IMG/VR virus record: IMGVR_UViG_3300037515_000188 | Location: 45,849-109,848 of that record | DNA from: a virus | DNA: 64,000 nucleotides | Strand: one strand, 5' to 3' | In this document: piece by piece, positions 5,685-59,971 of the stretch | Position numbering within the stretch: position 1 is the stretch's first letter | Layout of the letters: every line of letters starts with the position of its first letter | Made by a program: the position numbers and the translations under genes | Notes under the pieces: model-generated | What the model was told of the DNA's origin: nothing | Databases searched by the model: none | What the model saw: the letters and a program-made list of their open reading frames with translations, nothing else

Positions 5685-6019
5685 ATATCTAAAATTAAAC
5701 ATTTCTAAAATTTCCATTTAATGTATCATATATAACGCATTAGACCCTTTAATGTATTATATATAATACATTAACCAAAACTATCTTATATTTTTTTTTA
5801 AAAAATTTTGATCCATTTCATCTTGCATTATCATTTTAATATCAGATAAATTACTATCATAAACTAATTTACTGTATATCTTCCTACGGTAAGTAAAATG
5901 ATCATAATATATCATGCGAGGATGTAATATCTTAAAATAACATTTATTAATAATATGCATAATCTTAATTTATAAGTTTATCAATATTCAATAAAAAATT
6001 TTATTATTTTTTTAATTAA

Positions 6020-6211
6020 CTATATATTAAAAATTTTTTTTACCAAAAAATTTCGATTTAATTCATTCTTTATCATCACTCTTATATCATTTAAATGAAA
6101 TAATATATGATATAGATAATATGCTTTAGACTGATTATAATTTAATAGCGTATGCTCAATATAAGCAATTGAATCATTATACCTATAAAAAATATCTTTA
6201 ACAATATTCAT
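6020..6211 (-). CDS. array mini-protein, type B (MNIVKDIFYRYND)
   Basis: paralog of the unit starting at 7068. Confidence 0.65.
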   Translation of the reverse strand: MNIVKDIFYRYNDSIAYIEHTLLNYNQSKAYYLYHILFHLNDIRVMIKNELNRNFLVKKIFNI

Positions 6212-6359
6212 CTTCTAATTCTTCCACTATTCGATCTATTAACTCCCCCAAAATATCAGTAAAATATACAACATCATATAACAGAGAATCATCATAATTC
6301 AATGGTAAACGTATTTTATAATAAAAATCTACATCAAGTTGTTTATATATTGGTTTCAT
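6198..6359 (-). CDS. array mini-protein (MKPIYKQL...IVEELEDEYC)
   Basis: manual translation; conserved termini. Confidence 0.6.
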   Translation of the reverse strand: MKPIYKQLDVDFYYKIRLPLNYDDSLLYDVVYFTDILGELIDRIVEELEDEYC

Positions 6360-6897
6360 ACTAAATTTATCCTCTAATAATTAATTACAAATTTGTCAAT
6401 TTTACTAGAAAATTCAATAAATCTTATATATAATTTTTATTCTTATTTCATGATTTATTATATTCTTTATTATATTTAAATCATTATCATACATTATTTT
6501 ACTATACATTTTTCTCATACTAAGACTCCGAGGGGATAAGATATTAAAAATTAAAGTATCTTTAATGATTTTCATTTTTTCATTCTAATAATAATATCTT
6601 GCAAAAAATAATCAATAACATTTATCATCATCCATAATTTTATATCATTTTCAGATGGATATATCTCTTTAAAATCGTGCATCATTAATGCCAATTCAAT
6701 ATTAATTTTTAATGTGTTATAAATTAATTTCATCAAATTTCAGACTAATATTAATTTACTTGTAATTATATTCATATACTTCTATTTCTTTTAATATTAT
6801 ATCCCTAATATTCTGATTAAATAATACTTTATCATACAATAAAACCCAATAGTCCGGATATAAGTTATATAACCTTAATGGTAGTTCAATTACTTGT

Positions 6898-7068
6898 TTA
6901 TAAATTATTTTCATCCATCGCATTCTTTATTATCATATTCTTTATTATATTCAAATCATTATCATATAAGAATCTATGATATAAATAATTTCCTTTAAAA
7001 TTGAAATCATTATCAATATAAACAAATAAATCGTTATATCTATAAAAAATATCTTCAATAATTTTCAT
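6898..7068 (-). CDS. array mini-protein, type B (MKIIEDIFYRYND)
   Basis: internal start within ORF 6898..7146. Confidence 0.65.
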   Translation of the reverse strand: MKIIEDIFYRYNDLFVYIDNDFNFKGNYLYHRFLYDNDLNIIKNMIIKNAMDENNL

Positions 7069-7268
7069 CTTTTCCATTTTCCAATTATATAATCTATTAC
7101 ATAATCTTCTATTAATTCTTCTAATACTATATTTACTGGTTCCCATATAATATTATTAAAATATATACCATCATATAAAAATAATGTTGTATTATAATTA
7201 TTATCAATTAACATTAAACGTATTCTATTAAATACATCCATAGAAATTTTTTTATAAATCAGATTCAT
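7065..7268 (-). CDS. array mini-protein (MNLIYKKI)
   Basis: conserved termini. Confidence 0.65.
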   Translation of the reverse strand: MNLIYKKISMDVFNRIRLMLIDNNYNTTLFLYDGIYFNNIIWEPVNIVLEELIEDYVIDYIIGKWKR

Positions 7269-7396
7269 AAAATATATAATCCAATTCTTCCAATACTACA
7301 TCCAACAAAAATTCTTGATCCCCCAAATCATACATCTGTAATAGTTCTGAAGAATAATAACCTCCATCATATAATGCCTGACTAATAATATCAATA

Positions 7397-7606
7397 TTAA
7401 ACTGTTGATAAATCAGGTTCATAAAACATATAATCCAATTCTTCTAATATAATATCAATTAATGAGTCTTCTTGAATCCTCCACTCAATTAATGAGTCTT
7501 TAATCCTCCACAATAAATCATACATCTGTATTTTTTGATAATAATCATTATCAAATATAGATTGTTCAATAACATTAATATTAAATTTTTTATAAATCAA
7601 TTTCAT
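7397..7606 (-). CDS. array mini-protein (MKLIYKKF)
   Basis: conserved termini, IDIILEEL. Confidence 0.65.
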   Translation of the reverse strand: MKLIYKKFNINVIEQSIFDNDYYQKIQMYDLLWRIKDSLIEWRIQEDSLIDIILEELDYMFYEPDLSTV

Positions 7607-7778
7607 ATATTTTTTTTCTTAGTTCATGATTTATCATATGCTTTATTATATTCAACTCGTTATTATATATTAATGTATGATATTTGGTATAAATAATTTC
7701 ATCCAGATCAAACATATAATGTTCAAATGCATTAAATGATTTACCCTTTAAGAATATTATTTTTCCAATAGTTTTCAT
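7590..7778 (-). CDS. array mini-protein, type B (MKTIGKII)
   Basis: YNNELNIIKHMINHEL motif shared with other type B units. Confidence 0.65.
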   Translation of the reverse strand: MKTIGKIIFLKGKSFNAFEHYMFDLDEIIYTKYHTLIYNNELNIIKHMINHELRKKIYEIDL

Positions 7779-7919
7779 AAATTTTTTAATGATTCCAATA
7801 TAGCACTCTTTAAACGTATTATATTCATCATAATAGTAAAATATATTACCTCTTCTATTTTTGCATACTTTTTTTCATGCGTCAGTATATACCTGCCATC
7901 ACCATCCCATTGTATTTGT

Positions 7920-8138
7920 TTATATATTAGTTTCATATATTTTCAATTCATCCAATATGATATCGATCATTGATTCTGAGTCATGCCATATAATATTCTG
8001 TTGTACATAATTCCATGTAATATTTTGTTTCCTATTCATAAAATCATGTATCTGAAATATTTCTGAATGATACTCGGTAACGAATAACATGTATACCTTA
8101 TCTACGATACTAGCAAATTGGACATGAATTTGTTTCAT
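7920..8138 (-). CDS. array mini-protein (MKQIHVQF)
   Basis: C-terminus identical to the unit starting at 8474. Confidence 0.65.
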   Translation of the reverse strand: MKQIHVQFASIVDKVYMLFVTEYHSEIFQIHDFMNRKQNITWNYVQQNIIWHDSESMIDIILDELKIYETNI

Positions 8139-8267
8139 AATTGCAATTCATCCAATAATACTGTTCTTATACCCGTAAGTCCGGGAATATAGATTATACG
8201 ATTTATTTTTATGCTTTTAGCATATAATAATGTATAGAATAAATTTCCATCAAATTTATTTAATTGT

Positions 8268-8474
8268 TTATATATTAGTTTCATATATTTTCAATTCATC
8301 CAATATGATATCGATCATTGATTCTGAATTATACCATATAATATAATCCCATGTAATACTTTGTTGCTTGTTTATGAAATCATGTATCTGTAATACTTCC
8401 GGATGATACTCGTGACATAATAATATATAAATAGTTGGTCTTATTTTAACTAATTGTTTATTAATTATTTTCAT
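8268..8474 (-). CDS. array mini-protein (MKIINKQL)
   Basis: conserved termini. Confidence 0.65.
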   Translation of the reverse strand: MKIINKQLVKIRPTIYILLCHEYHPEVLQIHDFINKQQSITWDYIIWYNSESMIDIILDELKIYETNI

Positions 8475-8649
8475 ATAATTCATCCAACATATCATCCACT
8501 ACTTCTAATGTAATTCTAAATCGAGTAATATTATATACACTATCCATATAGTGAGATAAATACATCATTGCATCATAATGATTTTCACTTAATGATGAAT
8601 ATATTTTATCAAATACATTTTCTTCAAATTGTTTATAAATTAATTTCAT
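8461..8649 (-). CDS. array mini-protein (MKLIYKQF)
   Basis: conserved termini. Confidence 0.65.
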   Translation of the reverse strand: MKLIYKQFEENVFDKIYSSLSENHYDAMMYLSHYMDSVYNITRFRITLEVVDDMLDELYENN

Positions 8650-8959
8650 TTTTTATTTGTTCTTTGATAACACTTAATATAGTTACAATATCAACCGAAT
8701 ATAATGGTAGAGTATAATAAAAATGAGTTTTTATTAACATCCAATGTATAGAACCGAATACATTTTCTTCAAATTTGTTATAAATTAATTTCATATATTA
8801 TACGCACCATATCATTAAAAAATAATTCATCTAATAATAAATTCTGAACCAACACCAAATGCATGATTCTATAATGTTTTAACGGCTGCTTTATAACGTA
8901 AATTATTATCTATATTAAATTTAAACCCATTTAATTCATTATATACAATATTCATTATT

Positions 8960-9169
8960 TTAATTTGCCAATTCATTCAAAATAAATAATCTTAATAATT
9001 TTGTTGGATTATCAACATACCAACATATATTTGTTTCATCCGTTCCGGAAATTTCGTTCCATAATGTAATACCCATTGCTTTTAATACAGTCTTTTTATA
9101 TACCAACTTATGGAGTAATTTACCATTAGCAGTAAATTCATTTAATGAGTTATAAATAATTTTCATCAT
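8960..9169 (-). CDS. array mini-protein (MKIIYNSL)
   Basis: conserved termini. Confidence 0.65.
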   Translation of the reverse strand: MMKIIYNSLNEFTANGKLLHKLVYKKTVLKAMGITLWNEISGTDETNICWYVDNPTKLLRLFILNELAN

Positions 9170-9366
9170 AATTTATCCATTATAATATCCATTATGATAT
9201 CATGTATTGCATCTACCCTTAATAATTTTTCTATTATTATTGGTTTGGAAATACACCAACATTTAGATATTTCATTTTCCGTTGCCGTGAAATACATTAT
9301 ACCCGACATATTTCCACGAAATAATATATAAGTTATTTTAACTAATTGTTTATTAATTATTTTCAT
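9166..9366 (-). CDS. array mini-protein (MKIINKQL)
   Basis: conserved termini. Confidence 0.65.
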   Translation of the reverse strand: MKIINKQLVKITYILFRGNMSGIMYFTATENEISKCWCISKPIIIEKLLRVDAIHDIIMDIIMDKL

Positions 9367-9814
9367 CTAAATTGGATTAATTCATCTATTATTAATTCCA
9401 TCATAATTATTTCTAAAGTATTAAATTTAAATGTATGATAATACTTGTTATACTCATTTATACATATTGAATTATATACGTCAGTAAGTATAATTGATTC
9501 AAATTGTTCATAAATCAATTTCATGAATTTATTTTCTTATAACTTATACAAATCATATAACGTGTATAATATAAAATCTTTCATATGCAATCCAACATCT
9601 TCTCGTATAATAACTGGTTGTTCATGTTGGTAATAATACTTACAATAAATTCCCCGCCTGATTTGTTGTTCCCTAAATTTCATTTGGTTATAAATGAATT
9701 TCATTAATTTGTTCCATGATTGATAATTTTAATAATGAAGGGCTTTCACGATTACTTAAAAAAACATTTGGCCCATTATGTAAAATTAAATTATACATTA
9801 TCACTGGTTTAATT

Positions 9815-9982
9815 TTAACTAAAATAAATAGCATGTTTAATCTCCATTAAAATAAATTGTATTAATGTTCTTGGAGTATTATTAATATTCCAAAATCTAG
9901 TTTTTACCATATCATTATTATAACATAATAATTTAAATAATAAGGGTTTTATTTGAGATAATTGGTTATTAATTGTTTTCAT
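9815..9982 (-). CDS. array mini-protein (MKTINNQL)
   Basis: conserved termini. Confidence 0.6.
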   Translation of the reverse strand: MKTINNQLSQIKPLLFKLLCYNNDMVKTRFWNINNTPRTLIQFILMEIKHAIYFS

Positions 9983-10295
9983 ACAGTATTGTAACATTAT
10001 GTAAATTCAATTGTTTATAACTTAATTTCGTAATTCTTCCATTAGTTTATTTCGTATATCTAATATACTTTCAAAATAAAATGACAATAATAGTTTTGGA
10101 TAATAATGAATACCCAATATTTTCCAATATATGTTATCAAATATATTTTCATCAAATTGGTCATAAATTAATTTCATAAATTTGATCCCATATCAATATT
10201 TTAATTAAATTTAAATGCCCCAATATATTATAGGCAAATTATGCTTTTTACGATATTCATGTATTAATATATTAATGATAAATGCATTTAATTGA

Positions 10296-10478
10296 TTATA
10301 AATTAATTTCATCTTCGATATACTCATTATCATCTATTTCATCAACTATGGCATCTGTAATAGTCCATAAAATATTATCATTTATAATATAGTCAATACA
10401 ATCATAAGATTCTTCGCTTAATATAACTTTAAACTTACCAATTAATTCTGATTCCAATTTTTTACAAATTATATTCAT
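10296..10478 (-). CDS. array mini-protein (MNIICKKL)
   Basis: ends DEINL* overlapping the next start. Confidence 0.65.
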   Translation of the reverse strand: MNIICKKLESELIGKFKVILSEESYDCIDYIINDNILWTITDAIVDEIDDNEYIEDEINL

Positions 10479-10653
10479 TTTTTATTTCTTCTTTTATTCT
10501 TAGTAATGGAACAAATACATTATTTGTAGGAGAATTAATCACTATATTTTGATCATATGTTAATATTTTATTAAATTCATAATTATAATAAACTATAAGA
10601 ATAGCTATTATATTAATTATAATTTCATTTAATTCTTTATAAATTAATTTCAT
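10462..10653 (-). CDS. array mini-protein (MKLIYKEL)
   Basis: ends NEYNL* overlapping the next start. Confidence 0.65.
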   Translation of the reverse strand: MKLIYKELNEIIINIIAILIVYYNYEFNKILTYDQNIVINSPTNNVFVPLLRIKEEIKNEYNL

Positions 10654-10980
10654 CTTCTAAATACTCATATACTCATATTCATTTATTTCATTAATTATAG
10701 TAGTAATAATCAATAAAATATTATCATGAATATATATTGCATCATAATATTCTTCACTTAATGGCAAATATAATTTATCTGTAAATATTAAATATAATTC
10801 TTTATAGATTATAATCATTATAGTATCTAATGTAATATTTCATAAAAAATGTAATCTTGTATTATTCTAATTAAATTAAATGATCTATGTGTAGTATGAT
10901 ATAATTGATTTACAATGCCTGAATGATCTATAACCATTTTACGAGGTTTCTCATGGACACGAAGATCAAATAATTTGTTT

Positions 10981-11175
10981 TTAATAATTTTCATAAACTT
11001 GATCCAATATCAAATATACTGCCGCATGTCCAATCTGCGTTCTTATCATAATCTGCATTCTTATCATACCAGTTAATTGATATATTCTATTTGATATAAC
11101 ATTATTATAAATATAATTTACATTATTCCTATCGTGCAATCGGTAATTTAATAATTGTTTATAAATATTTTTCAA
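10981..11175 (-). CDS. array mini-protein (TTG start, KNIYKQL)
   Basis: conserved termini. Confidence 0.55.
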   Translation of the reverse strand: MKNIYKQLLNYRLHDRNNVNYIYNNVISNRIYQLTGMIRMQIMIRTQIGHAAVYLILDQVYENY

Positions 11176-11362
11176 TTTTTTTTCTTATGGATGCATCTAA
11201 TCATCTGTATTTATTTTCGAGGAAAATGTATAACATTCTATTAACAAGTTTCTTACCATAACTGTAAAATTAATTTTAAGTAATTCTTTAAATAATAATT
11301 TTCTTTTTTCTTTAAATTTATGTTTTAAGACAACCTGCATGACAAATACATCTAAATTTATT

Positions 11363-11566
11363 TTAATATTGTTCATAAATTATTTTCCATGCATTTTTTT
11401 CATCAATTAATTGTTCTTTTATTAATAATCGTATAGATAGTAAATCATTATAATAATATGATAATGATCCAATTATTATTTTTGATTTATTAGAATTTAA
11501 TTCATTGCTATAAATTATATCATATATTGGTCGAAATATCAATGCTCTATTTATAATAGTTTTCAT
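11363..11566 (-). CDS. array mini-protein, type B (MKTIINRA)
   Basis: conserved termini. Confidence 0.6.
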   Translation of the reverse strand: MKTIINRALIFRPIYDIIYSNELNSNKSKIIIGSLSYYYNDLLSIRLLIKEQLIDEKNAWKIIYEQY

Positions 11567-11700
11567 AAATTATCAAGTTCGTGAATTATAAACATTTTTA
11601 TATTATTAAAAATCAATAACATATAAATTTTATAATAATCTGAATATGCTATTAAATCAAATATATATGTTATTTTTAATTTGTCGTTAATTAATTTCAT
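11563..11700 (-). CDS. first array mini-protein (MKLINDKL...IIHELDNL)
   Basis: manual translation; ATGA overlap with the next unit. Confidence 0.6.
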   Translation of the reverse strand: MKLINDKLKITYIFDLIAYSDYYKIYMLLIFNNIKMFIIHELDNL

Positions 11701-11709
11701 AACTATTGT

Positions 11710-11738
11710 ATTATACATTGTTTTTTTATTAATATCAA
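11710..11738 (-). promoter_or_regulatory. sigma70 promoter driving the mini-gene array
   Basis: TTGATA-N17-TATAAT; ATG 9 nt downstream. Confidence 0.75.
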
Positions 11739-11744
11739 TAAATA
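11738..11744 (+). promoter_or_regulatory. T4-like late promoter core ATAAATA (also at about 13010, 15452, 16422, 29142, 43168, 46701, 49932, 63054)
   Basis: recurs just upstream of structural and MKLxE genes; matches the T4 gp55 consensus TATAAATA. Confidence 0.6.
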
Positions 11745-11749
11745 CGTCT

Positions 11750-12397
11750 ATGAAATTGAATGAAATAATAGATTTTAAACATGAGATAAAATCAGCATCC
11801 GATCTTAAACCCGGAGTATTACAGGGTAGAGGATTTTTTTCAAAGGTATATACCGATCAGGATGATCCACACATGGTTATAAAACAATCTAAATTTTCCG
11901 ACCAACTTGATACAAGTGATGGGTATTACAAATATATTGAAGCAACCATTAAAAATGGAATGAATGGGGTTAATCCATATGTACCTAGAGTTTATAAAAT
12001 AAATGCGATTGATACTGGTATGCAACTTATGAAAGGAGTAAATTCTTATAATCATGAAGTTCAAATAGAAAAATTAAATGTGGTGTATGATCTTGATATT
12101 AAAGATATTGAATTTATTTTGTCGAAAATTTTTCCAGAAGATTTAGTATCTTCATTATTATCAAAGGAATCACCAAATGAAATATTTGAATCCGTATCTG
12201 ATATATTATTTAAAATATTAAAAGGTACATATACAATTAAGAAAACCTTATCCAAGGATTTAAATCAAGTATTGGAATTAATTAAAAAATTATATGATGA
12301 TAAAATAATTACAGAAATTGATTTAAAACCAGCAAACTTAATGATTCGTAGAAGTCCATATGGTCCACAACTTGTTATTACCGATCCGGCGGCATAA
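11750..12397 (+). CDS. protein kinase-like protein, paralog 1
   Basis: GRGFFSKVY glycine loop, VIK lysine, DLKPANLM catalytic loop, VITDP; start MKLNEII. Confidence 0.8.
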   Translation: MKLNEIIDFKHEIKSASDLKPGVLQGRGFFSKVYTDQDDPHMVIKQSKFSDQLDTSDGYYKYIEATIKNGMNGVNPYVPRVYKINAIDTGMQLMKGVNSYNHEVQIEKLNVVYDLDIKDIEFILSKIFPEDLVSSLLSKESPNEIFESVSDILFKILKGTYTIKKTLSKDLNQVLELIKKLYDDKIITEIDLKPANLMIRRSPYGPQLVITDPAA

Positions 12398-12398
12398 T

Positions 12399-13010
12399 AT
12401 GAAATTAAATGAAATTATAGACTTCAGACATGATAAAATTGATATGTCTTCCATAAAACGTGGGGAACGAATGGGTTCAGGATTCTATTCAACTGTGTAT
12501 GCGGATAATGATGATCCACACATGGTTATAAAGGATATGGAACGCCATGGGGGTGATAAACCAAGAGATGGATTTTCCAGCTATATAGAAGCAATTATTG
12601 AAAATGGAATGAATGGAGTAAATCCTTATGTTCCTAGAGTGTATAAATTAAATTCCTCTAAAACCAAAGATAATGAATATAAACATACTTATCAAATTGA
12701 AAAATTAAATGATCTTGAACATTTAGATAAAAAAGATTTTGAATTTATATTTTCAAAACTTCTTTCTGAAGATAAGATTAAAGAATATACAGATCATTCT
12801 GTTCGTTTAGCATGGGCTTTGGCTTCTTATATTGATGATTTAGTACATGGATATGAACCATTGTCAAAATCCAAGAAATTAAATGAAGTTATAGAACTTA
12901 TCAGACAATTATATCAGAGAGGACTTTCCTATGATATAAAACCTGAAAATATGATGTATCGTTCAACACCATATGGGGCACAATTGGTTATTAGTGATCC
13001 ATTATATTAA
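12399..13010 (+). CDS. protein kinase-like protein, paralog 2
   Basis: GSGFYSTVY, VIK, DIKPENMM, VISDP. Confidence 0.8.
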   Translation: MKLNEIIDFRHDKIDMSSIKRGERMGSGFYSTVYADNDDPHMVIKDMERHGGDKPRDGFSSYIEAIIENGMNGVNPYVPRVYKLNSSKTKDNEYKHTYQIEKLNDLEHLDKKDFEFIFSKLLSEDKIKEYTDHSVRLAWALASYIDDLVHGYEPLSKSKKLNEVIELIRQLYQRGLSYDIKPENMMYRSTPYGAQLVISDPLY

Positions 13011-13021
13011 TAAATATATTT

Positions 13022-13645
13022 ATGAAATTAAATGAAATAATACAATCGGAAGTATCTATTCATGATACAAAAGATTATAATCCATTACAGATGGGAGATC
13101 ATATAGGAACCGGAACATATTATACAAGTTATGAAAATCCTGATGATCCTCATACAATTCATAAATTCTCAAGACAACCAACAATATCCCATGATGGATT
13201 TAAAATTTATGCTGATTACATTATAAAATATAATTTAGCATCGAAAAATCCTTATTTTCCAAGAATATATAAACATCGAACTAATATAGAACCTCCATCT
13301 GATTTATCATATGAATTTGAAATAGAAAAATTATTATTATATTATGATATAAGAATAAAAGAATTTCGTCCCATACTTGAATTATTATTTAATGACTCTG
13401 AAGTTGAAGAAATTATGAACATACATAGTAATGAAGGAATTACAATTAAAATTGCTAGAAAAATACGATTGATGATAACACAAAATATAAAAAGTAAATC
13501 AAAATTATTAAATCAGGCATTTTTTATTATACAAAAGATAATACGTGATAATTCTGATATATATATTGATATACATGAAGATAATATCATGTTTAGAAGA
13601 ACTAATTCTGGCATTCAATTAGTTATTAATGATCCATTAGTTTAA
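13022..13645 (+). CDS. protein kinase-like protein, paralog 3
   Basis: GTGTYYTSY, DIHEDNIM, VINDP. Confidence 0.75.
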   Translation: MKLNEIIQSEVSIHDTKDYNPLQMGDHIGTGTYYTSYENPDDPHTIHKFSRQPTISHDGFKIYADYIIKYNLASKNPYFPRIYKHRTNIEPPSDLSYEFEIEKLLLYYDIRIKEFRPILELLFNDSEVEEIMNIHSNEGITIKIARKIRLMITQNIKSKSKLLNQAFFIIQKIIRDNSDIYIDIHEDNIMFRRTNSGIQLVINDPLV

Positions 13646-16446: not shown

Positions 16447-16899
16447 ATGCCGCAAAGAGAAGTTATTGTTTTATCTGAAGAAAACTCTAGATTAGAAGTT
16501 CCGCAATCAGGAGATACCTATTTAATGCCCCGCGATGTTTCTATTGTGGGAGATGCAACAGTATCTGGAACAATTAATGGGCAAGATATTACTCAATTTA
16601 TATATACTGGAGATATAGATTTTGCAGAAGATAAAGATTATATATTATGGTTTTCTGCTCCATTTAATGGAACTATAACAAGAGTATATACTAAATCAGA
16701 ACTAGGAACAGCTACATTTACTATAAAAATAAATGATGTCGCATCTGGTGGAACGCCTAATAATGTAAGTACAATTTCGGAAGAACAAATTCATTCTTCA
16801 GATAATGAATTTGTAACTGAGGATAAATTATCATTTACACTTGCATCTGTTGTTGATTGCGAAAATGTATCCTTTATTGTTTATGGTGTCCGTACATGA
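16447..16899 (+). CDS. putative virion fibre/adaptor protein
   Basis: late promoter; beta-rich; coupled to the repeat protein. Confidence 0.6.
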   Translation: MPQREVIVLSEENSRLEVPQSGDTYLMPRDVSIVGDATVSGTINGQDITQFIYTGDIDFAEDKDYILWFSAPFNGTITRVYTKSELGTATFTIKINDVASGGTPNNVSTISEEQIHSSDNEFVTEDKLSFTLASVVDCENVSFIVYGVRT

Positions 16900-18593
16900 G
16901 TTTTAATAAATCATTTACCCGTGATTTATCCGTAGCCGAGGAATGGGTTCGTAATCCTGAATGGGTGACATTACCAACAGTTACCACGGGCGATAACACT
17001 TTTGTTGGGTTGTATGCCATTCACCCGGACATTCCGAATCATTGCGCCTTACGTGCTTCCGGAAATTACACGGTGGATTGGGGAGATGGAACCGCTCCGG
17101 AAAATGTAAATTCTGCCGTTACGGCAGAGCATACTTATAATTACGATGATGTTGACTTATTAGGTACTACTGTAGGTGCTGTGGATGCAGTTGACTGTAC
17201 ATTTCAGGATACTGAAGATACAGTTACGGTAACTGATCATCTATTTCAAAACGGACACATTATCCAGTTTGCCACTATTAACAGCACAACAGGGATCAGT
17301 ATTGATACCAAATACTATGTACGTGACCGAACTGTCAATACATTTAAAGTTTCGGCTACTAGAGGCGGGGATGCTCTGACTCTGACTACAGATGGCACCG
17401 GTACAGTCTATGCACCAATGTATCGGCAGGCAGTTATTGTAATCACTATGCAATCAGCACAAACATTTACTAGTATTAGTTTGGACTTTTCGCATTCGGC
17501 AACATCAACTATTAATTTTAGTGGTTTACCATGGCTAGATATAATCATATGTGGTGCATCATTAACCATAATTGATCTCAATATGGGCTATAATCGGCGT
17601 CTTTCACGGCTGGAACAAGTCACTATTATTGATCACTCTATGATAAATATGGCTAACATGTTTATTAAATGCTTCGCTTTGCAATCCGTGCCATTATTTA
17701 ATACAGCATCCGTAACGAACATGTCAAGCATGTTTAATAGTTGCAGCGCTTTGCAATCCGTGCCATTGTTTAATACAGCATCCGTAACGAACATGTCAAG
17801 CATGTTTAATGGCTGCGGCGCTTTGCAATCAGTGCCATTGTTTAATACGACAGAAGTAATAGGTATGAGTAGTATGTTTAACTTATGTTACTCCCTACAA
17901 TCAGTACCATTGTTTGATACGGCAAAGGTAACGTCCATGAACAGCATGTTTAATAATTGTACCTCTTTGCAATCAGTGCCATTATTTAATACAGCGGCAG
18001 TAACAACTATGTCCAGCATGTTTGCTAGTTGTAGCTCTTTGCAATCAGTGCCATTATTTAATACGACATTGGTAGATATTATGAGTAATATGTTTAATGT
18101 ATGCTACTCCCTACAATCAGTACCATTGTTTAATACAGCGGCAGTAACAACTATGGCCAGCATGTTCCAATCTTGCCTCTCTTTGCAATCAGTACCATTG
18201 TTTGATACGGCAAATGTAACGGCCATGAACAGCATGTTTAATGCATGCTACACTCTACAATCAGTACCATTATTTAATACAGCGGCAGTAACAACTATGG
18301 CCAGCATGTTCGGTAACTGCTATAGTTTACGCGAACTTCCGGCTCTTAATTTTTCCGCAGCTACCAATACAACAAGTGCATTTGTATCAGCGACCAGTAT
18401 TTCTAGAATCCCAATAACACCACCCGCAATATCATTTAGTGTTACCGGACTCAATCTTGATGCAAATGCATTAAATGAATTATATACTAATTTACCCAAT
18501 GCAACAGCTACGCTTACAGTAACTAATTGCCCCGGCATTGCTGCTGATGATCCTACTATTGCAACTGCCAAGGGATGGACGGTGGTATCATGA
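16896..18593 (+). CDS. putative receptor-binding/surface protein with DUF285/BspA-like LRR repeats
   Basis: about 10 24-aa repeats SLQSVPLFNTA.VT.MSSMF..C; VDWGDG motif; ATGA overlap defines the start. Confidence 0.8.
   Translation: MSFNKSFTRDLSVAEEWVRNPEWVTLPTVTTGDNTFVGLYAIHPDIPNHCALRASGNYTVDWGDGTAPENVNSAVTAEHTYNYDDVDLLGTTVGAVDAVDCTFQDTEDTVTVTDHLFQNGHIIQFATINSTTGISIDTKYYVRDRTVNTFKVSATRGGDALTLTTDGTGTVYAPMYRQAVIVITMQSAQTFTSISLDFSHSATSTINFSGLPWLDIIICGASLTIIDLNMGYNRRLSRLEQVTIIDHSMINMANMFIKCFALQSVPLFNTASVTNMSSMFNSCSALQSVPLFNTASVTNMSSMFNGCGALQSVPLFNTTEVIGMSSMFNLCYSLQSVPLFDTAKVTSMNSMFNNCTSLQSVPLFNTAAVTTMSSMFASCSSLQSVPLFNTTLVDIMSNMFNVCYSLQSVPLFNTAAVTTMASMFQSCLSLQSVPLFDTANVTAMNSMFNACYTLQSVPLFNTAAVTTMASMFGNCYSLRELPALNFSAATNTTSAFVSATSISRIPITPPAISFSVTGLNLDANALNELYTNLPNATATLTVTNCPGIAADDPTIATAKGWTVVS
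17641..18340 (+). repeat. 72-bp coding tandem repeats
   Basis: TTGCAATCAGTGCCATT.TTTAATAC recurs every 72 bp. Confidence 0.85.
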
Positions 18594-19571: not shown

Positions 19572-19844
19572 TTATAAATTAAAATTTTGACGTATAGAAT
19601 CCATTTTTTTACGTCTACGTTCTATATATTTTTCAGGTTTTCTTAACTCTTCATGACCTTTTGCATATGTAGCTGGACGAATTTCTAATTCATAGGCATT
19701 TCCATCACTACCCCTAAAAAACACAGTAAACCCATCATGCATAGCCTTAACATCTAATAATTTTTCAACAAACTCTAGTTTTTTAAGTTCAGTTATTAAA
19801 TCCATCATTTTAGTGGATCGTTCTTCGATTAATTTCATTATCAT
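19572..19844 (-). CDS. hypothetical protein (MKLIEE start)
   Basis: ORF. Confidence 0.6.
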   Translation of the reverse strand: MIMKLIEERSTKMMDLITELKKLEFVEKLLDVKAMHDGFTVFFRGSDGNAYELEIRPATYAKGHEELRKPEKYIERRRKKMDSIRQNFNL

Positions 19845-19873
19845 TCCAATATTAATATTTGATAAATATATTT

Positions 19874-22223: not shown

Positions 22224-23445
22224 GGTGCTCATGCCGCCACCTTAACAACCACTGCCGCACGAGCACAAAATGCGCTGCTCGGCGGTGATCTTAAAGGTAA
22301 AAGCTCGTTCCCGCAAACGGACGCCGACAACTCGGCGCGACGGAGGATATTTCGAGCCGCATTCACGTCTCGATCATGTGACTCACCACAGTCGCTGCAA
22401 TCCCACTGTCTTACAATCAACCCGTCCATTCCATGAGGTCCAGTTAACGAACCACATGAGGAACAGGTGACGCTGGTGTTCTTTTCATTAATGACTTCAA
22501 CAGACCTACCGGCGTACTCGCCCTTATATTGTAACATCTGTCTGAACATGCCCCAACCTGAATCATAAACGGATTTTGCTATCCGTGTTTTAACTAGTTT
22601 TGGACTGCTCACATCACCAATGATTATTTTCTGGTATTTATCTATAATTTTCCGTGAAAATTTGTGCAACGCATCAGCGCGTTGTCTTTTTATTTTCCGG
22701 TGAATCCGTGCAATTTGTTTCTTATGTCCTCTCCGTTGCGCATTTGCCAATTTATCGGCTGAATTATGGGTCCATTTTCCAGCTTCCAGAACATCTCCAT
22801 CACTGGTTGTGGCAATGGATTTCAATCCCAGATCAATTCCCACGGATTCATATGGTGCGATAGCCAATTCTACCTGCACTTCAACTGGCAAACAGAGCCA
22901 CCAATCACCAACCGCATCTTGTGCAAAACATCCCGCTTTCCATTTTACGCCATCAAGTCGTGAGGACTCGAATACACGAAATGTCTTACCAGCAAATCGT
23001 AAATATTTTCCTTTACGTTTTATACTTAATGCCTTGAACGGAATCCAACCCAAAGAACGATTCCAGCCTCCACTCTTGCGCCAGCGCAATCTTAGTTTTT
23101 TGGCAGCACTTCTTTTTTGTTCATAATGAATGCAAATCGATTGAATGGTGTGTGAACCGATTTTATCAAAATATTCCATGGCACCTGCCGTTAGCTTGCA
23201 TAGATCAAATCCACTCATCCATTTACGGTTTTTATCCGTTCTTATAGATGCCTTAAAACTTGTCTCATTGCAAAAATTAAAAACCTGATTGACTTCAATG
23301 GCTGCGGCATTCAACCATGGATATGCCTCACGCTTAATTTTAAGGCGTAATGTTTTCATAAATAAATGCGGCATGATCAAATTGTTATTCATTATTAATT
23401 CCTCTGCTCCGGTTTCACTGCGCGACCGTCTTATGGGGTCGAAAC
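22224..23445 (-). mobile_element. IS200/IS605-like TnpB-only element 1
   Basis: left end GTTTCGACC hairpin after GAT; right end GCATGAGCACC; ends shared with the other copies. Confidence 0.8.
22229..23392 (-). CDS. tnpB: RNA-guided endonuclease TnpB
   Basis: RuvC-I GIDLG, Zn finger CSSC...[15 protein letters not shown]. Confidence 0.95.
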   Translation of the reverse strand: MNNNLIMPHLFMKTLRLKIKREAYPWLNAAAIEVNQVFNFCNETSFKASIRTDKNRKWMSGFDLCKLTAGAMEYFDKIGSHTIQSICIHYEQKRSAAKKLRLRWRKSGGWNRSLGWIPFKALSIKRKGKYLRFAGKTFRVFESSRLDGVKWKAGCFAQDAVGDWWLCLPVEVQVELAIAPYESVGIDLGLKSIATTSDGDVLEAGKWTHNSADKLANAQRRGHKKQIARIHRKIKRQRADALHKFSRKIIDKYQKIIIGDVSSPKLVKTRIAKSVYDSGWGMFRQMLQYKGEYAGRSVEVINEKNTSVTCSSCGSLTGPHGMDGLIVRQWDCSDCGESHDRDVNAARNILRRAELSASVCGNELLPLRSPPSSAFCARAAVVVKVAA

Positions 23446-51177: not shown

Positions 51178-52908
51178 ATGACTATTAAAATATTATTCAC
51201 AGAAGAAGAAAAACAAAAAATAATAAATTTATATAAAAATGACATTGCAATAAAAAATATAACAAATATTTATAACTGTTCTGTCACTACAATAATTAAT
51301 TTATTAAAAAATGAAAAAATTTTTAAACCTGCAAAATATAAAAATCTTGCATATAAGTATATAAAATATACAAAATCAAAAAAATTATGTGAGAAATTAT
51401 ATAATAATAGTTCATCATTGAAAGATTTTTCTAATAAATTAGAATGTAGTATTGATATGGCTAGAAATATTTTATTGGATCATAATATAACTATATTGGT
51501 ATCTCATGAAATTAAAAGAAAAAATTCAATCCCGTTAAATGAAAAGGATATAATATTTAATTATATTAATAATGATTTTAGCATATCAAAATTAAAAAAT
51601 AAATATAAAACATCATCTAATACAATAAAATCAATATTAACAAAAAATAATATAAAAATAGTCAATAATTCAATTAAACAATTATCTAAAAATGCTAAAC
51701 TTGCATTAAATGATTTTAATTATGCTAAAACACAATATGAAAATAGTATAACTCTTTTTGGATTTCAACAAAAATTAAATTGTGGTGCTTTGACGGCTAA
51801 AAAAATAATAGAATTTCATGGTTTAAAAAATTTTACAATAACAGATAGTAAATATAATAAATATGTAGCAACCTTTCATAATAATTTTAAAAATTTTAAA
51901 TTAATTGATAAATCGGGACCATATTTAACAATAAATCATAATATTTGTGATAAAAAATTTAGTATAACAACACAAACTGCTGGAAAATGGAAACAGTATG
52001 ATGATAATGATTTATGTCCATATTGTAATAATAGATATAAGACTTCAAAATTTGAAAAAGATATAAAAAACTTTTTATTAGACAATAATATATCATTTGT
52101 ATCAAATGATAAATCAATATTAGGTCATAATTTAGAATTAAATATATTATCAAAAGAGTATAATATAGCCATAGAATGTTGTGAGCTATATTGGCATTCA
52201 AATATATTTAAACATAGGACATATCATTTAGATAAATTAAAATTATGTAAAGATAAAAATATAAAATTAATAACTATATTTGAAGATGAATGGAAATATA
52301 AAAAACATATAGTTGAAAATAGATTATTATATGCATTTGGTATTATTGATAAAAAAATATATGCAAGAAATTGTTCTATAATTACTAATATAAATAAAAA
52401 TGATGCATTATTATTTTTAGAAAAAAATCATATACAAGGAAAGGATAATGCTAAAATATATTTGGGATTATCTTATAATAATGAAATAATAGGAATTTGT
52501 AGTTTTAAAAAACCAAATGTATCTACTAATAATGTAACAGATAATAAAAATATATACGAATTATCCAGATATTGTACATCCATACATACTATTGGAGGAT
52601 TTTCAAAATTATTATCACATTTTATAAAATTATATAATCCCGAAAAAATAATAACATTTTCAGATCGAAGATGGGGTGAAGGAGAAGTATATTCAAAAAA
52701 TAAATTTACTTTTATCCATTCCACTAATCCCAATTATTGGTATGTAAAAGGATTAAATAGAATTCATAGATATAATTTTGCAAAACATAAATTAATTAAT
52801 AAATTTCCAGAATATAAAAGTTTAACAGAATCTCAAATAGTTGAAAATGAATTAAATTATAATAAAATTTATGATTGCGGTTCCAATAAATATGAATTTA
52901 TTAAATAA
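51178..52908 (+). CDS. Hef-like homing endonuclease (HTH repeats, PD-(D/E)xK domain and C-terminal domain)
   Basis: IAIEC..LYWHS, IFEDEW, YARNC, NHIQG, ELSRYC, GGFSKL, YDCG; ELNI in place of ELDI. Confidence 0.8.
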   Translation: MTIKILFTEEEKQKIINLYKNDIAIKNITNIYNCSVTTIINLLKNEKIFKPAKYKNLAYKYIKYTKSKKLCEKLYNNSSSLKDFSNKLECSIDMARNILLDHNITILVSHEIKRKNSIPLNEKDIIFNYINNDFSISKLKNKYKTSSNTIKSILTKNNIKIVNNSIKQLSKNAKLALNDFNYAKTQYENSITLFGFQQKLNCGALTAKKIIEFHGLKNFTITDSKYNKYVATFHNNFKNFKLIDKSGPYLTINHNICDKKFSITTQTAGKWKQYDDNDLCPYCNNRYKTSKFEKDIKNFLLDNNISFVSNDKSILGHNLELNILSKEYNIAIECCELYWHSNIFKHRTYHLDKLKLCKDKNIKLITIFEDEWKYKKHIVENRLLYAFGIIDKKIYARNCSIITNINKNDALLFLEKNHIQGKDNAKIYLGLSYNNEIIGICSFKKPNVSTNNVTDNKNIYELSRYCTSIHTIGGFSKLLSHFIKLYNPEKIITFSDRRWGEGEVYSKNKFTFIHSTNPNYWYVKGLNRIHRYNFAKHKLINKFPEYKSLTESQIVENELNYNKIYDCGSNKYEFIK

Positions 52909-56028: not shown

Positions 56029-58326
56029 TTATTCCATAAATGTATAATTATTCTTATCTTCTAAAAATACTATTGTCAGAAAATCATTATCTTTTGCTCC
56101 TCTATTATGAAATAAATGATAGCGAAGGTTTCCTTCATATGTTCGAGTTAATTTTAATATATTTTCTGTATATCCTGCATATAATTGAAAACTTGGAAAT
56201 TTATTTTCAAAATCATATTTAAATTTATCATCTATAAATTTTTTCATAGATGGCTCCAATGTTTCATCACATACATTTAATATAATACTGTCAGATAAAT
56301 TTGATTTATTCATATATTTAGCGTAAAAATGATTTAATTTTTCAAAAGAATTTTCTAATGATAAATCAACTATTATATGAAAATCCGCACCTTGATTATT
56401 TTCAGCAACAATGTCTTTTATCCATAATGGTTTTATAAAATTTATTTCCTTTCCTTTATATCCAGCGGATTCTAACATCTCTTTATAAAAGAATTTATTT
56501 TCATCCATGAACAATAAATTTATATTTGAGAATTTAGAACTTATTATATTTTCATGTACTTGATTTGCAATTATGCATATTTTTTTACTTTTATACTCTA
56601 ATTGTTCTATTATTGATATTATTTGTTCTAATTTATTATTATCCGTTGTATACATTAAAATATATAAACATGAATTAGATGAATCCATTGATATATTTTT
56701 TGGACGTAGTAAATCCGTTAATTCTCTTTCTTTTCGTTGTTTAAATATTAAATTAGAATTATAATATATACAATCTAATTCTGTTTTTATTAAAATTTCA
56801 AATGCATCACTTAAACGTGTCAATATAGGTTTTCCATTAACATTAAATGATGTATTTAATATCACACCATATCCACTAAGTTTATCAAATTCATCAATAA
56901 TAGTATATAAAAATTCATTTTGATCTTTTGTTATAGTTTGTAATCTACCTGTTCCATCAACATGAGTTATTGCCGGAAAATCATATTCTTTGTTTACTGT
57001 TGCAATATATGTCATATGTTGACTTTCATATGAAAAATCAAAATATTTAGATACATCTTCAAATTTCACAACCGGGGCAAATGGTCTATACCACTCTCTA
57101 TGTTTAACTTTAGCATTTAATATATCCTTCATATTTCCAACCGGATTACATATAATACTTCTATTTCCGAGTGCTCGTGGTCCATGTTCAGAATTTCCAT
57201 GTATTATACCAATTATATAATTATTTTCCAATAAAATAGCGATATCTTTTTCTGTAATATTTTCTATAACTGAAACTGGATTATCTTCCAATAATGCAGA
57301 ATAATTTAATGTATCCATTATTGGCAAACCAGAATATGTAATATCAATTTGTTTTTCTGGTTTAATATATTCTAATAATCCACCAATTGCTATTCCACAA
57401 TCATTTGTGTTTGGTGGAATATATACATTTCCATCTTTAATAATATTAATTAATTTACTATTTAATATTACATTTAATGCACATCCACCAGATAAACAAA
57501 CCGGATATGAAGAATATTTGGAAATATATGGCATTGCCAACTCTAAAAATACATTTTCAAATGCTTGTTGCGATGTAGCTGCCATATCCCATGAAAATTG
57601 TCCTTTAAATCTGGTTGTCTCTAAATCAAAATCAATTATTCCTATGGAATTAAATAATTCTTTTGTTACAGAATAACGAATTTCTGCCCCTCCGGCATAT
57701 GAATTGCCAGCATATCTAAATTGTTTATAGAACTTTTCAAAATGTGGTAGCCATTTTTCATTTACTTTACCATATGCACATAATCCCATTAATTTTCCGG
57801 CATACACTAAATTACCTATATTTAAAGGTTCTTTCGTTATATCTTCCATATGATCTGCTAATATCATATAAGGAAATCCAAGATCAATATCGAATTTATC
57901 TATTAATTTTGGTCCAATATTTCTAGTGTTTGCCAGATATACATTAAAAAATGCACCATTTCCCCCTCCATCATAAGTAAATATTAAAGATTTATTATAT
58001 GGAGATTGATAAAATGCACAAGCTGCATGGGCTGCATGATGGTCAAATCTTTTATGTTGTTTTATATTATAATTTGATAAATCAACTTTAGAAAAATAAT
58101 TTGATAAAAATATATCAATAACATTTGTATTAGTTTTTTCAAAAATATAATTTAAAATGTCATCAAACACTTTTTGCGGACATTTTGCAGGCAGATATCC
58201 CGCTAAACCTGCATTTTTTTTATTTAACCATCGTTCTAATTCTATAATATAATATTTTTCATTATAAAATGCAGCTATTGCTGCGTTATGTGATCCATAT
58301 GCAGATATTAATAACCCATCAGTCAT
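56029..58326 (-). CDS. O-carbamoyltransferase (NodU/CmcH family) with C-terminal extension
   Basis: ELER, HHAAHAA, YDGGG, GKLMGL, SGGCALNV, NDCG, EHGPRALGNRSI, HREWYRPFAP, HVDGTGRLQ, LNTSFN. Confidence 0.93.
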   Translation of the reverse strand: MTDGLLISAYGSHNAAIAAFYNEKYYIIELERWLNKKNAGLAGYLPAKCPQKVFDDILNYIFEKTNTNVIDIFLSNYFSKVDLSNYNIKQHKRFDHHAAHAACAFYQSPYNKSLIFTYDGGGNGAFFNVYLANTRNIGPKLIDKFDIDLGFPYMILADHMEDITKEPLNIGNLVYAGKLMGLCAYGKVNEKWLPHFEKFYKQFRYAGNSYAGGAEIRYSVTKELFNSIGIIDFDLETTRFKGQFSWDMAATSQQAFENVFLELAMPYISKYSSYPVCLSGGCALNVILNSKLINIIKDGNVYIPPNTNDCGIAIGGLLEYIKPEKQIDITYSGLPIMDTLNYSALLEDNPVSVIENITEKDIAILLENNYIIGIIHGNSEHGPRALGNRSIICNPVGNMKDILNAKVKHREWYRPFAPVVKFEDVSKYFDFSYESQHMTYIATVNKEYDFPAITHVDGTGRLQTITKDQNEFLYTIIDEFDKLSGYGVILNTSFNVNGKPILTRLSDAFEILIKTELDCIYYNSNLIFKQRKERELTDLLRPKNISMDSSNSCLYILMYTTDNNKLEQIISIIEQLEYKSKKICIIANQVHENIISSKFSNINLLFMDENKFFYKEMLESAGYKGKEINFIKPLWIKDIVAENNQGADFHIIVDLSLENSFEKLNHFYAKYMNKSNLSDSIILNVCDETLEPSMKKFIDDKFKYDFENKFPSFQLYAGYTENILKLTRTYEGNLRYHLFHNRGAKDNDFLTIVFLEDKNNYTFME

Positions 58327-59971
58327 TTGTATTTGGTTTCCACAAGTAAACATCATTTCCGCAATCCCAAATTCTATAATATCCATTATTCATCATATTT
58401 TTATACTCTGATAAATTAGGATCAAAAGTTTCCAATAACTTTGGAAGTTTATGTTTTTGAAATTTATTTCTAGAATATAATTCAAAAATATTATTTATGT
58501 GGAAATATTTGTAATTGGGGGTTGATCGTCGTATTAATTTAAATCCATTCATAAAGTAAATGGAGCCAGAGAAATAAGCAATATCGCAATAAGATATTAT
58601 TGATTCTGGATTAACTTTTATAATAAAATATTTAAATAATTTTGAAAACCCACCTAAAACAGTTATCCCTAACTTATTAGAAAATCTATATAATTCATAT
58701 TCAGCATCTTTACTAAATCTTGAGTTTGAAATTGTCATAACTGAAACCAATTCATTATTGTAAAATAAACCATATCTATATTTTGATGGAATGCTACCTT
58801 GTAAATGATTTTTATTTAAAAATTCAGAGCTAATATTATGAGATAATTCTTTTATTTCACATTTTCTTGCTGGTATTTTTTGATTAATAATATCTAATTT
58901 TTTCTTAATTAAATCCTTTACTATATCTTTTTTTGTCCCCCATTCTGAATCTGTAATATGAATTACATTATATCCATTATTTTCAGCTACCAATGTTTTA
59001 TTTAAATGATAATTTTTATCTTTATGTGTATCAGAATGCCAATATACACCGTTACATTCTATAGCCAATTTTTTATCTGGTAATACGATATCCAGTTCGT
59101 TTGGTGCTATTATAATTCTATCATTATTTAAAACAGTTCCAGAATATATAGATTTTATATATTTAGTGATTTCATATTGAAAAACACTTCCATTAGAAAT
59201 TAATGTATCCACCCATTTAATATTGCTTAAATTCCTGTCTTCAATAATACCATCTACAGTTTTAATTCGAATAGGACTCTTATTATTTTTATATTCAGTA
59301 GATATTAATTCTCCGCCTCTTGATTCAACAATTTTTCGAACATCTTCTATAGTATGCCGTTGTTTCTCAAATCTACTTTCACGAATATATTCTTTTGAAT
59401 ATAATTTGTTCAATTTTCTAATGGATACCAACCCTCGTTCTTCTATTACTCCATCAATTGTTTGAATTTTAATGGGATCATTATATTTTGCTATTGTAGT
59501 TGATAATAGTTTCCCCCCTCTACGTTCTACAATATTTTTAATTTCATTTAAAGACAATTTATTATTTTGGCGTCTATTTTCTATAACTTCTTTCATTGAA
59601 ATTAATTGTTCAGAACTCCGTATACTGCATAAAGATCGTTCTTCAATCTCACCATCAGAAAATTTAATTTTTATTGGCGTTAAATCATTTACATATTCGG
59701 TAGAGAGTAATTCTCCGCCCTTAGATTCAATAATTTTTCTAACTTGATCTATAGATAATCTTGATTTATCAGATAATGATTTTATTTGATTTTTCTTGGA
59801 AATTAATTTTTTGGATGGATATATATTAGTCAAACATCTTGTTTCTATCTCTCCATCTGATGTTTTAATCGTAATAGGGACATTAGTCCCCCCATATTCA
59901 GTAGAAATTAACTCTCCACCTTTAGATTCAACAATTTTTCTAACTTCTTCTATTGATAATTTTTTACCCAT
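58319..59971 (-). CDS. Hef-like homing endonuclease with four N-terminal repeats of about 68 aa
   Basis: SIEEVRKIVESKGGEL repeats; ELDI...AIECNGVYWHS; ARKC; NHLQG; WDCG. Confidence 0.8.
   Translation of the reverse strand: MGKKLSIEEVRKIVESKGGELISTEYGGTNVPITIKTSDGEIETRCLTNIYPSKKLISKKNQIKSLSDKSRLSIDQVRKIIESKGGELLSTEYVNDLTPIKIKFSDGEIEERSLCSIRSSEQLISMKEVIENRRQNNKLSLNEIKNIVERRGGKLLSTTIAKYNDPIKIQTIDGVIEERGLVSIRKLNKLYSKEYIRESRFEKQRHTIEDVRKIVESRGGELISTEYKNNKSPIRIKTVDGIIEDRNLSNIKWVDTLISNGSVFQYEITKYIKSIYSGTVLNNDRIIIAPNELDIVLPDKKLAIECNGVYWHSDTHKDKNYHLNKTLVAENNGYNVIHITDSEWGTKKDIVKDLIKKKLDIINQKIPARKCEIKELSHNISSEFLNKNHLQGSIPSKYRYGLFYNNELVSVMTISNSRFSKDAEYELYRFSNKLGITVLGGFSKLFKYFIIKVNPESIISYCDIAYFSGSIYFMNGFKLIRRSTPNYKYFHINNIFELYSRNKFQKHKLPKLLETFDPNLSEYKNMMNNGYYRIWDCGNDVYLWKPNTND

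Follow-up and report, generated by a model that had tools for sequence, protein, structure and literature searches.

What is encoded in a stretch of phage DNA in which dozens of very short open reading frames (ORFs) follow one another on the same strand? The question is raised by IMG/VR virus record IMGVR_UViG_3300037515_000188, a linear contig of 109,848 bp with a GC content of 28.7%. Bases 45849-109848 of this contig, 64,000 nucleotides in all, are referred to here as the window, and positions are those of the window unless the contig is named. The phage genome is probably about twice the size of the contig because the completeness estimated by CheckV is only ~47%. From position 5781 to 11700, the minus strand of the window carries 35 consecutive ORFs of 28-72 amino acids (aa; median, 55), hereafter the array. 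We report that the units of the array are genes, not decaying repeats, and the statements made here at the gene level are well supported. Our preferred reading, held with moderate confidence, is that the array is a native polycistronic early unit of a large uncultured phage, with ~33 units that encode probably helical proteins of 45-72 residues, and that these units were duplicated, recombined at their junctions, and act on the host. The function is the least certain part; by analogy, the products would be early small proteins that engage host targets in host takeover or counter-defence.

Coding status and chaining of the mini-genes

An initial annotation of the locus had listed 32 start sites. 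All 32 head open frames on the minus strand, 31 with ATG and one with TTG (11175), and three further starts (11376, 8864, and 5960) bring the total to 35 (Table 1). Many of the units had been described as shorter than 60 aa, and this applies to 22 of the 35. Since about one trinucleotide in ten in the array is a stop (~10% of all trinucleotides), the ORF cover is far beyond chance. The sense strand is covered to 90% by 32 ATG-initiated ORFs of at least 40 aa and the antisense strand to 9%; the mean cover in 500 first-order Markov simulations was 5% (maximum, 19%). G occupies 19%, 7.5%, and 13% of codon positions 1, 2, and 3, respectively, a periodicity of the coding type, and mini-proteins of the array have already been called as genes in public collections. 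The 21-nt start motif ATGAAATTAATTTATAAACAA has 18 matches in the window at up to three mismatches, compared with 0.4 expected, and its matches across the 110-kb contig lie only in this array and only on its strand. ORF cover, codon periodicity, and start-motif statistics together uphold the earlier proposal of real, densely chained mini-genes.

The N-terminus shared by the units had been given as MK(L/I)I(Y/N)K(Q/K)(F/L) and is read here as MK(L/I)I(Y/N)(K/N)(Q/K)(L/F). A strict form of this octapeptide, scored as M[KN][LI]I[YNC].., was found in 18 of the 35 units; most of the others begin with MK or MN followed by I or L. The information content of the octapeptide is high at positions 1 and 2 of codons 3, 4, and 8 and about zero at the third position of codons 3 and 8. 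Selection acts on the octapeptide as protein: in codons 3 and 8, position 2 is fixed (T, hydrophobic) and position 3 varies freely.

A conserved 21-nt motif that recurs every 130-220 nt at a single locus could also be expected of AT-rich DNA or RNA repeats, with the motif as the repeat and the gene bodies as spacers. We find a non-protein-coding array of this kind scarcely credible, given the ORF cover of 90% versus 5%, the codon periodicity in the conservation of the motif itself, the full-length alignment of paralogs as proteins, and the absence of any Rfam match for the array at E values up to 1. Recoding and a single giant repeat protein were ruled out as well: the units occupy all three frames, and their stop usage (TAA, 21; TGA, 8; TAG, 6) is similar to that in the long phage genes. 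Membrane peptides were likewise ruled out, with a mean grand average of hydropathy of about 0 and a candidate transmembrane window in just 2 of the 35 proteins.

The start motif also serves as a boundary. Overlaps occur at 24 of the 34 junctions (10 by 17 nt, 4 by 14 nt, and 6 by 4 nt in the form ATGA, with single overlaps of 1, 20, and 26 nt), and the remaining junctions are gaps of 3-59 nt. The consensus start carries TGA at nucleotides 2-4 and TAA at 8-10 in one alternative frame and TAA at 15-17 in the other; therefore, an upstream gene that arrives in either of the other frames stops within the first 17 nt of the next gene. The common tails ..YE(I/T)N(L/I)* are MKLIYK read one frame over. 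Neighbours in the same frame fuse when the ATG is lost, as exemplified by the WKIIYEQY tail of m02.

Weak signals precede the starts. G reaches 34-40% at positions -13 and -11 against a background of 13%, and GGA is present within -20 to -4 of 16 of the 35 starts (mean, 5.4; maximum, 13 in 2000 samples), so that a weak ribosome-binding core, GGA, is enriched at 11-13 nt before the starts. Among the long genes of the phage, 22 of 60 have AGGA or GGAG sites. We infer that the overlaps and the weak upstream signals fit chained termination-reinitiation, in which translation would be handed from gene to gene with the aid of weak internal ribosome-binding sites.

At the head of the array, the near-consensus promoter described earlier (TTGATA-17-TATAAT) is present and occupies the sole gap between the array and three divergent kinase genes. 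With 9 nt between the end of the -10 hexamer and the ATG at 11700, the leader would measure ~1-3 nt, and transcription initiated at this sigma-70-type site would yield an almost leaderless first cistron. A second match at 11 of 12 positions lies in gene 2, and such matches in this AT-rich stretch are no commoner than in shuffled sequence, so a single promoter for the whole array is no more than plausible.

Just downstream of the last array gene, a two-copy repeat of 50-100 nt was observed (5440-5489/5647-5696, and also 5526-5559/5665-5698). Its copies share the identical 29-nt core CTCAGTTTTCAGGGTCTGTATATACTTAT. The repeat is confined to this site within the window, matches no Rfam family, and might be a terminator, processing element, or small RNA.

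Family structure and divergence of the units

The units had been described as one paralogous family, and this stands for about half of them. These fall into five small paralog clusters; the rest share only the octapeptide and, in some cases, the C-terminal motif. Composition-corrected BLASTP of the 35 proteins at E<1e-4 returned clusters of 6, 5, 3, 2, and 2 members and 17 singletons, and 16 of the 35 units kept a detectable paralog when the first 8 residues were trimmed. A hidden Markov model (HMM) of the core cluster recruited no additional array member above shuffled decoys. At least two interspersed subfamilies had been proposed, and two are recovered here as alignments A1 (subfamily A) and A2 (subfamily B, with the signature ..NDLNIIKN..); hhalign comparison of the two profiles gave a probability of 12%. 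Given the paralogs left after trimming, the core HMM, and this comparison, the idea of one scaffold family is supported only in part. The C-terminal motif, two hydrophobic residues followed by any residue and (D/E)E(L/I/M), occurs in 13 of the 35 units against 0.6 expected and lies 2-15 residues from the end.

The mini-proteins are rich in I, L, Y, N, and K and poor in Gly, Pro, and Ala, a composition common to the array. It is this composition, together with the octapeptide and the C-terminal motif, that unites the array. Their tyrosine content is 8.5%, compared with 4.5% in long ORFs, in line with the Tyr-rich middles noted before. AlphaFold2 modelled m20 as a single long helix (predicted local distance difference test [pLDDT] score, 81; predicted template modelling [pTM] score, 0.36), with the C-terminal motif as the most confident part, and a subfamily B member as a single helix (pLDDT, 66; pTM, 0.29). 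Judged by these models the mini-proteins are probably helical; the common helical scaffold claimed earlier would depend on such single-helix models of moderate or low confidence and is conjectural.

The GC content at third codon positions (GC3) of the array equals that of long genes (0.172 vs 0.170 in 43 long ORFs), and the array is therefore regarded as native and old. At the first and second positions (GC1/GC2), the values are far lower than in the long ORFs (0.29/0.16 vs 0.39/0.35), which indicates that the amino-acid composition has slid towards the mutational bias. The rapid divergence proposed in the initial annotation was supported: the ratio of nonsynonymous to synonymous divergence (dN/dS) of 12 paralog pairs was 0.49-1.14, as calculated by NG86, which is rough under AT bias, from pairs that are not independent. 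Pooling 11 pairs gave a dN/dS of 0.55 for codons 1-8, 0.76 for the bodies, and 1.09 for the final 15 codons; purifying selection at the termini is weak. dS is lowered at both ends (0.36 vs 0.61), as expected because two genes share the same bases at overlaps.

Duplication was local. The best paralog of a unit lies a mean of 5 units away, compared with 12 in permutations (p=0.0004). Two-gene blocks were duplicated (m21-m22/m23-m24 and m28-m29/m33-m34), which accounts for the interspersion of the subfamilies. In the mosaic alignment of m21-m22 with m23-m24, the upstream gene matches at background level for its first ~50 nt. Identity is 80-100% over the last two thirds of that gene, is exact for 69 nt across the junction, and returns to background 21 nt into the downstream gene. 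One end of the duplication or conversion tract therefore coincides with the edge of the start motif. These patterns suggest a mechanism in which segments of one or two genes would be duplicated locally to give new units, and recombination or gene conversion, ending at the conserved start motif, would exchange parts between units. Since the motif holds stops in both other frames, most joins would yield a terminated upstream gene and an initiating downstream gene. Gene bodies would then drift fast to AT-rich codons.

The main rival is that the array is a near-neutral by-product of repeated tandem amplification (a "genomic accordion") of one or a few once-useful small genes, with most copies drifting and devoid of a specific function, and the frames open mainly because the copies are young or because translation protects the transcript. 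We consider this explanation rather unlikely. The dN/dS of 0.5-1.1, the collapse of GC1/GC2 towards the mutational AT bias, and the half of the units that have no detectable paralog beyond the first 8 residues all speak for it. So does decay: ~33 units lie behind the 35 ORFs, and 4-5 of them are decayed or split, namely m09, m17+m18, m12 with its replaced N-terminus, and two fossils (one with an ACG start and one fused into m02). There is also a precedent in T4, in which a small counter-defence gene was amplified in tandem by microhomology recombination (bioRxiv 10.1101/2022.04.14.488369). On the other hand, with a dN of ~0.4-0.5 per site and ~10% stops, most 55-codon frames would have been disrupted in the absence of selection, yet 30 of the 35 are intact. 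Both the octapeptide and the C-terminal acidic motif are conserved as protein sequence, and three such arrays (see below), which together take up ~16% of the contig, are costly in a packaged genome.

Several points weigh against the preferred reading of a functional early unit. dN/dS values near 1 and the drift of GC1/GC2 to AT also fit weakly selected or unselected ORFs. The AlphaFold2 models are single helices with pTM scores of 0.29-0.36, too featureless to define a fold. Promoter-like hexamers number 102 in the stretch and 102 in shuffles, which makes the head promoter weak evidence on its own. At the end of the array, no terminator was detected; a single terminator-like site occurs in the 8 kb scanned, as many as expected from shuffles, and it lies outside the array. 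A role in host takeover or anti-defence is argued from gene neighbourhood (gp0.7-like kinases and rII) and analogy only. Finally, the searches described below found no related genome that could show conservation, turnover, or reshuffling of units between strains.

Table 1. Features of the mini-gene array in order from its head (all on the minus strand)
Feature	Position	Length (aa)	Remarks
Sigma-70-type promoter	11710..11738		TTGATA-17-TATAAT; head of array
m01	11563..11700	45	MKLINDKL...HELDNL
m02	11363..11566	67	B-like; C-terminus WKIIYEQY is a fossil unit start (ATG to TGG), in-frame readthrough
m03	11197..11376	59	Atypical, basic; no family N-terminus
m04	10981..11175	64	TTG start; (M)KNIYKQL
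m05	10827..10994	55	B-like; MKIIKNKL
m06	10657..10818	53	Paralog of m08
m07	10462..10653	63	MKLIYKEL
m08	10296..10478	60	Acidic, net charge -12; overlaps m07 by 17 nt
m09	10211..10312	33	Truncated unit
m10	10022..10177	51	Core cluster (also m14, m19, m20, m28, m33)
Fossil unit start	9985..10031		Motif with ACG for ATG, then short dead frame
m11	9815..9982	55	MKTINNQL; clusters with m21 and m23
m12	9688..9834	48	N-terminus replaced; LVKIKP core retained
m13	9537..9704	55	MKFIYNQM
m14	9363..9524	53	
m15	9166..9366	66	MKIINKQLVKI
m16	8960..9166	68	
m17 + m18	8778..8955	28 each	Ancestral single unit broken by stop and frameshift; N-half MNIVYNEL, C-half with LLLDEL
m19	8633..8794	53	
m20	8461..8649	62	Start motif is the exact consensus; modelled with AlphaFold2
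m21	8268..8474	68	65% identical to m23
m22	8135..8284	49	
m23	7920..8138	72	Chimera: C-terminal two thirds like m21, N-terminal third unlike
Junction-spanning repeat	7913..7996		95% identical to 8261-8344; 69 nt identical
m24	7775..7936	53	
m25	7590..7778	62	Subfamily B (NELNIIKH)
m26	7397..7606	69	Paralog of m27
m27	7252..7422	56	Acidic, net charge -12
m28	7065..7268	67	Paralog of m33
m29	6898..7068	56	Subfamily B; paralog of m34
m30	6756..6914	52	
m31	6572..6733	53	
m32	6414..6575	53	Subfamily B
m33	6198..6359	53	After 54-nt gap; own GAGGA ribosome-binding site
m34	6020..6211	63	Subfamily B
m35	5781..5960	59	Subfamily B; final array gene

Putative function, known systems, and relatives

The array adjoins three tandem paralogs of the T7 gp0.7-like kinase (11747-13645, plus strand; 33-49% identical, all beginning with MKLNEII), which are transcribed divergently from its head. 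The neighbourhood is of an early type, and the array is headed by the sigma-70-type promoter. Two sister arrays of low-GC chained mini-genes lie elsewhere on the contig. Array 1 (~40 genes; contig ~180-8750, minus strand) encodes proteins that begin with MKIL... and are basic in 34 of 39 cases, and array 2 (~8 genes) is located at contig 10350-12160 on the plus strand; the starts in these two arrays are of the MKIL.../MKLIN... type. rIIA and rIIB, at contig 15.1-18.8 kb, adjoin arrays 1 and 2. The three arrays together comprise ~80-88 genes, or ~16% of the contig. No relation was detected between the families of arrays 1 and 2 and those of the present array (array 3), and the A1 profile matched the main array 1 family with an hhalign probability of 0.2%. 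Early small proteins acting on host targets would suit both the gp0.7-like kinases and the rIIA/rIIB genes beside the sister arrays.

An octapeptide conserved as protein sequence, on small proteins that otherwise cannot be aligned, is reminiscent of a sorting tag. In T4, internal proteins known as IPI, IPII, and IPIII and their polymorphic relatives carry a capsid targeting sequence (CTS), and at least one of them, IPI, is a counter-defence protein (PMC3012670, PMC9026906). The array proteins resemble them in being small, very diverse, and alike only in a short N-terminal peptide, and the phage has T4-like genes (rIIA/B and RNA ligases). A CTS-like tag, with the bodies packed in the head and injected as counter-defence proteins, is nevertheless decidedly improbable. 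The array has 35 genes rather than 3-4, and 35 (or ~88) different cargos are far beyond any known case. T4 internal proteins are all basic, whereas the charge of the mini-proteins is mixed, with 14 of 35 acidic (down to net -12) and 17 of 35 basic. The operon looks early and sigma-70 driven and lies away from structural genes. No (L/I)xE cleavage site occurs at a fixed distance. A gp21-type protease (PF03420) was not found on the contig, a result that is uninformative because the contig is ~47% complete and control genomes also gave no match.

A conserved N-terminus ahead of a hypervariable remainder would also be expected of a library of peptide precursors or enzyme substrates, in which a conserved leader and a variable core are served by a shared modifying enzyme, such as the adjacent kinases or an unseen maturase, as in precursors of ribosomally synthesized and post-translationally modified peptides. 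The three kinase paralogs that diverge from the same intergenic gap and the abundance of tyrosine point in this direction. We judge it very improbable, as the leader would have just 8 residues, the cores contain little Cys (0.6%), Ser (3.7%), Thr (3.1%), or Gly (1.6%), no maturase family was found among the scanned neighbours, and gp0.7-type kinases are Ser/Thr kinases.

A bolder proposal treats the three arrays as a combinatorial cassette system. The start motif would be a frame-tolerant, self-punctuating recombination joint (stops in the other frames plus a start), across which half-genes could be gained, lost, and recombined at a high rate and yet always be translatable. The octapeptide would be a handle read by a shared partner, such as the adjacent kinases, the packaging core, or a chaperone, and the outcome would be a continuously regenerated library of small host-binding proteins. 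We regard this proposal as improbable.

Returning to the preferred reading, an early unit of duplicated and junction-recombined genes, several known systems offer comparisons. The hyperplastic regions of T4-type phages contain small, novel, fast-turnover early genes flanked by promoter-early stem-loop (PeSL) cassettes (Arbiol et al., 2010, PMC2839356; Comeau et al., 2014, PMC4122927). The array resembles these regions as a series of small and novel genes, probably early and fast in turnover, carried by a large T4-related phage; a short conserved sequence at each gene boundary is a possible recombination point for modular shuffling. The boundary element differs: in place of a promoter with a terminator hairpin between genes, it consists of the 21 nt that open each coding sequence, on which the stop of the previous gene overlaps. 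The array genes form a single chained operon of paralogous units, whereas PeSL regions hold unrelated ORFans. A promoter and a stem-loop terminator do not surround each gene of the array, in which 24 of the 34 junctions overlap and have no intergenic space.

The small counter-defence gene tifA of T4 undergoes tandem segmental amplification (bioRxiv 10.1101/2022.04.14.488369). Here too, tandem copies of small early genes would arise by recombination at short homologies, and tifA offers a route from one gene to an array. The tifA copies are identical, recent, and unstable, whereas those in the array are old and mostly diverged beyond recognition. For SPO1, a host-takeover module with a cluster of 26 small early genes has been described (bioRxiv 10.1101/569657). 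The likeness would lie in a block of small early genes, a few dozen in number, that a large lytic phage directs at host processes. The SPO1 module has no sequence similarity to the array. To our knowledge, its genes do not form one paralogous, junction-linked family. In T4-type phages, series of small early genes that evolve fast and have recombinogenic boundaries are already known; particular to the present locus are the N-terminal handle at the protein level, the coding, self-punctuating junction, and the scale.

The mini-protein families are new, with no relative among ~15 billion proteins. The initial annotation could assign them to no known family, and Pfam, PHROGs, and PDB gave no significant match. 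In PHROGs v4, the best E-value was 0.039, for 1 of 24 members; Pfam-A returned just two single-member matches at chance level. In PDB, the A1 profile had no match and the A2 profile a best E-value of 1.8. ESM Atlas yielded nothing usable. The A1 profile had 17 matches among 1.84 billion representative proteins, all encoded by this window, and A2 and m23 found only this genome among 5.8 billion clusters. Megablast of the locus against 50,697 phage records returned no relative. A motif scan of IMG/VR gave one chance match and no related array, and a degenerate motif scan of metagenomes gave single chance matches, with neither an array nor an HMM match. No related array was reached through the kinase and RIIA neighbours in IMG/VR or through the kinase alignment in Joint Genome Institute (JGI) metagenomes, and peptide-pattern scans of these two collections found no relatives of the kinases.

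The many small early genes of large phages are a main reservoir of host-takeover and counter-defence proteins, and the array is an extreme and clean example, with 35 chained genes of families that are absent from all other genomes searched. If its proteins are functional, the birth and diversification of new small proteins become testable, with the evidence pointing to duplication, junction recombination, and drift under AT pressure, as does the role of the shared 8-residue N-terminus. The units are short enough for pooled synthesis and screening against defence systems. If the array is largely neutral, it shows how much near-junk coding sequence a phage can carry.

Genomic setting

The contig encodes RIIA, RIIB, two RNA ligases, an ATP-dependent DNA ligase, HNH/homing endonucleases, a carbamoyltransferase, and the kinase paralogs. 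The nearest isolates (the Pseudomonas PA5oct group and T4-like phages) are just 33-40% identical, in the ligase or RIIA. A YjgR-like ATPase match (MW462191, 60% identical) was rejected as kin, being on a bacterial contig with a gene transfer agent. The stretch is present in seven sediment metagenome runs, all of DNA; no RNA run is listed as containing it. Contigs from four of these runs represent the same phage with 0 differing letters, and the array is fragmented in them. Loose contig ends near junctions (7281 and 8463; two runs each) were considered as strain variation, which was rejected, as de Bruijn assembly breaks at the repeated motif.

Sites that match at least 11 of 12 promoter positions number 45 across the contig, compared with 16.3 ± 4.3 in simulations. 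Array 1, like the present array, is headed by such a site (TTTACA-17-TATAAT), which ends 6 nt before the first ATG. Nine promoters of the contig are perfect (TTGACA-17-TATAAT), and most of the enriched host-type sigma-70 sites are on the plus strand at contig 15-51 kb. Several plus-strand genes that begin with MKL... are preceded by a near-identical leader of the 58870 type, ..T(T/A)(G/A)ATAAATATATTT-ATG (e.g., 13000-13021 and 19840-19858), which may be a shared early leader or a promoter-proximal element.

A 387-aa ORF (22229-23392, minus strand) matches the PHROG transposase family phrog_506 (E 1e-68) and therefore marks a mobile element inside the phage genome. Two large paralogous HNH/homing-endonuclease-like genes (phrog_3339/559; 51178-52908, plus strand, and 58319-59971, minus strand) flank a gene cluster of carbamoyltransferase and glycosylation type. 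A 578-aa protein (16857-18593, plus strand) combines three DUF285 (BspA-type leucine-rich) repeats with a tail-fibre-like N-terminal segment; it is a possible candidate for a receptor-binding protein and a hint to the host.

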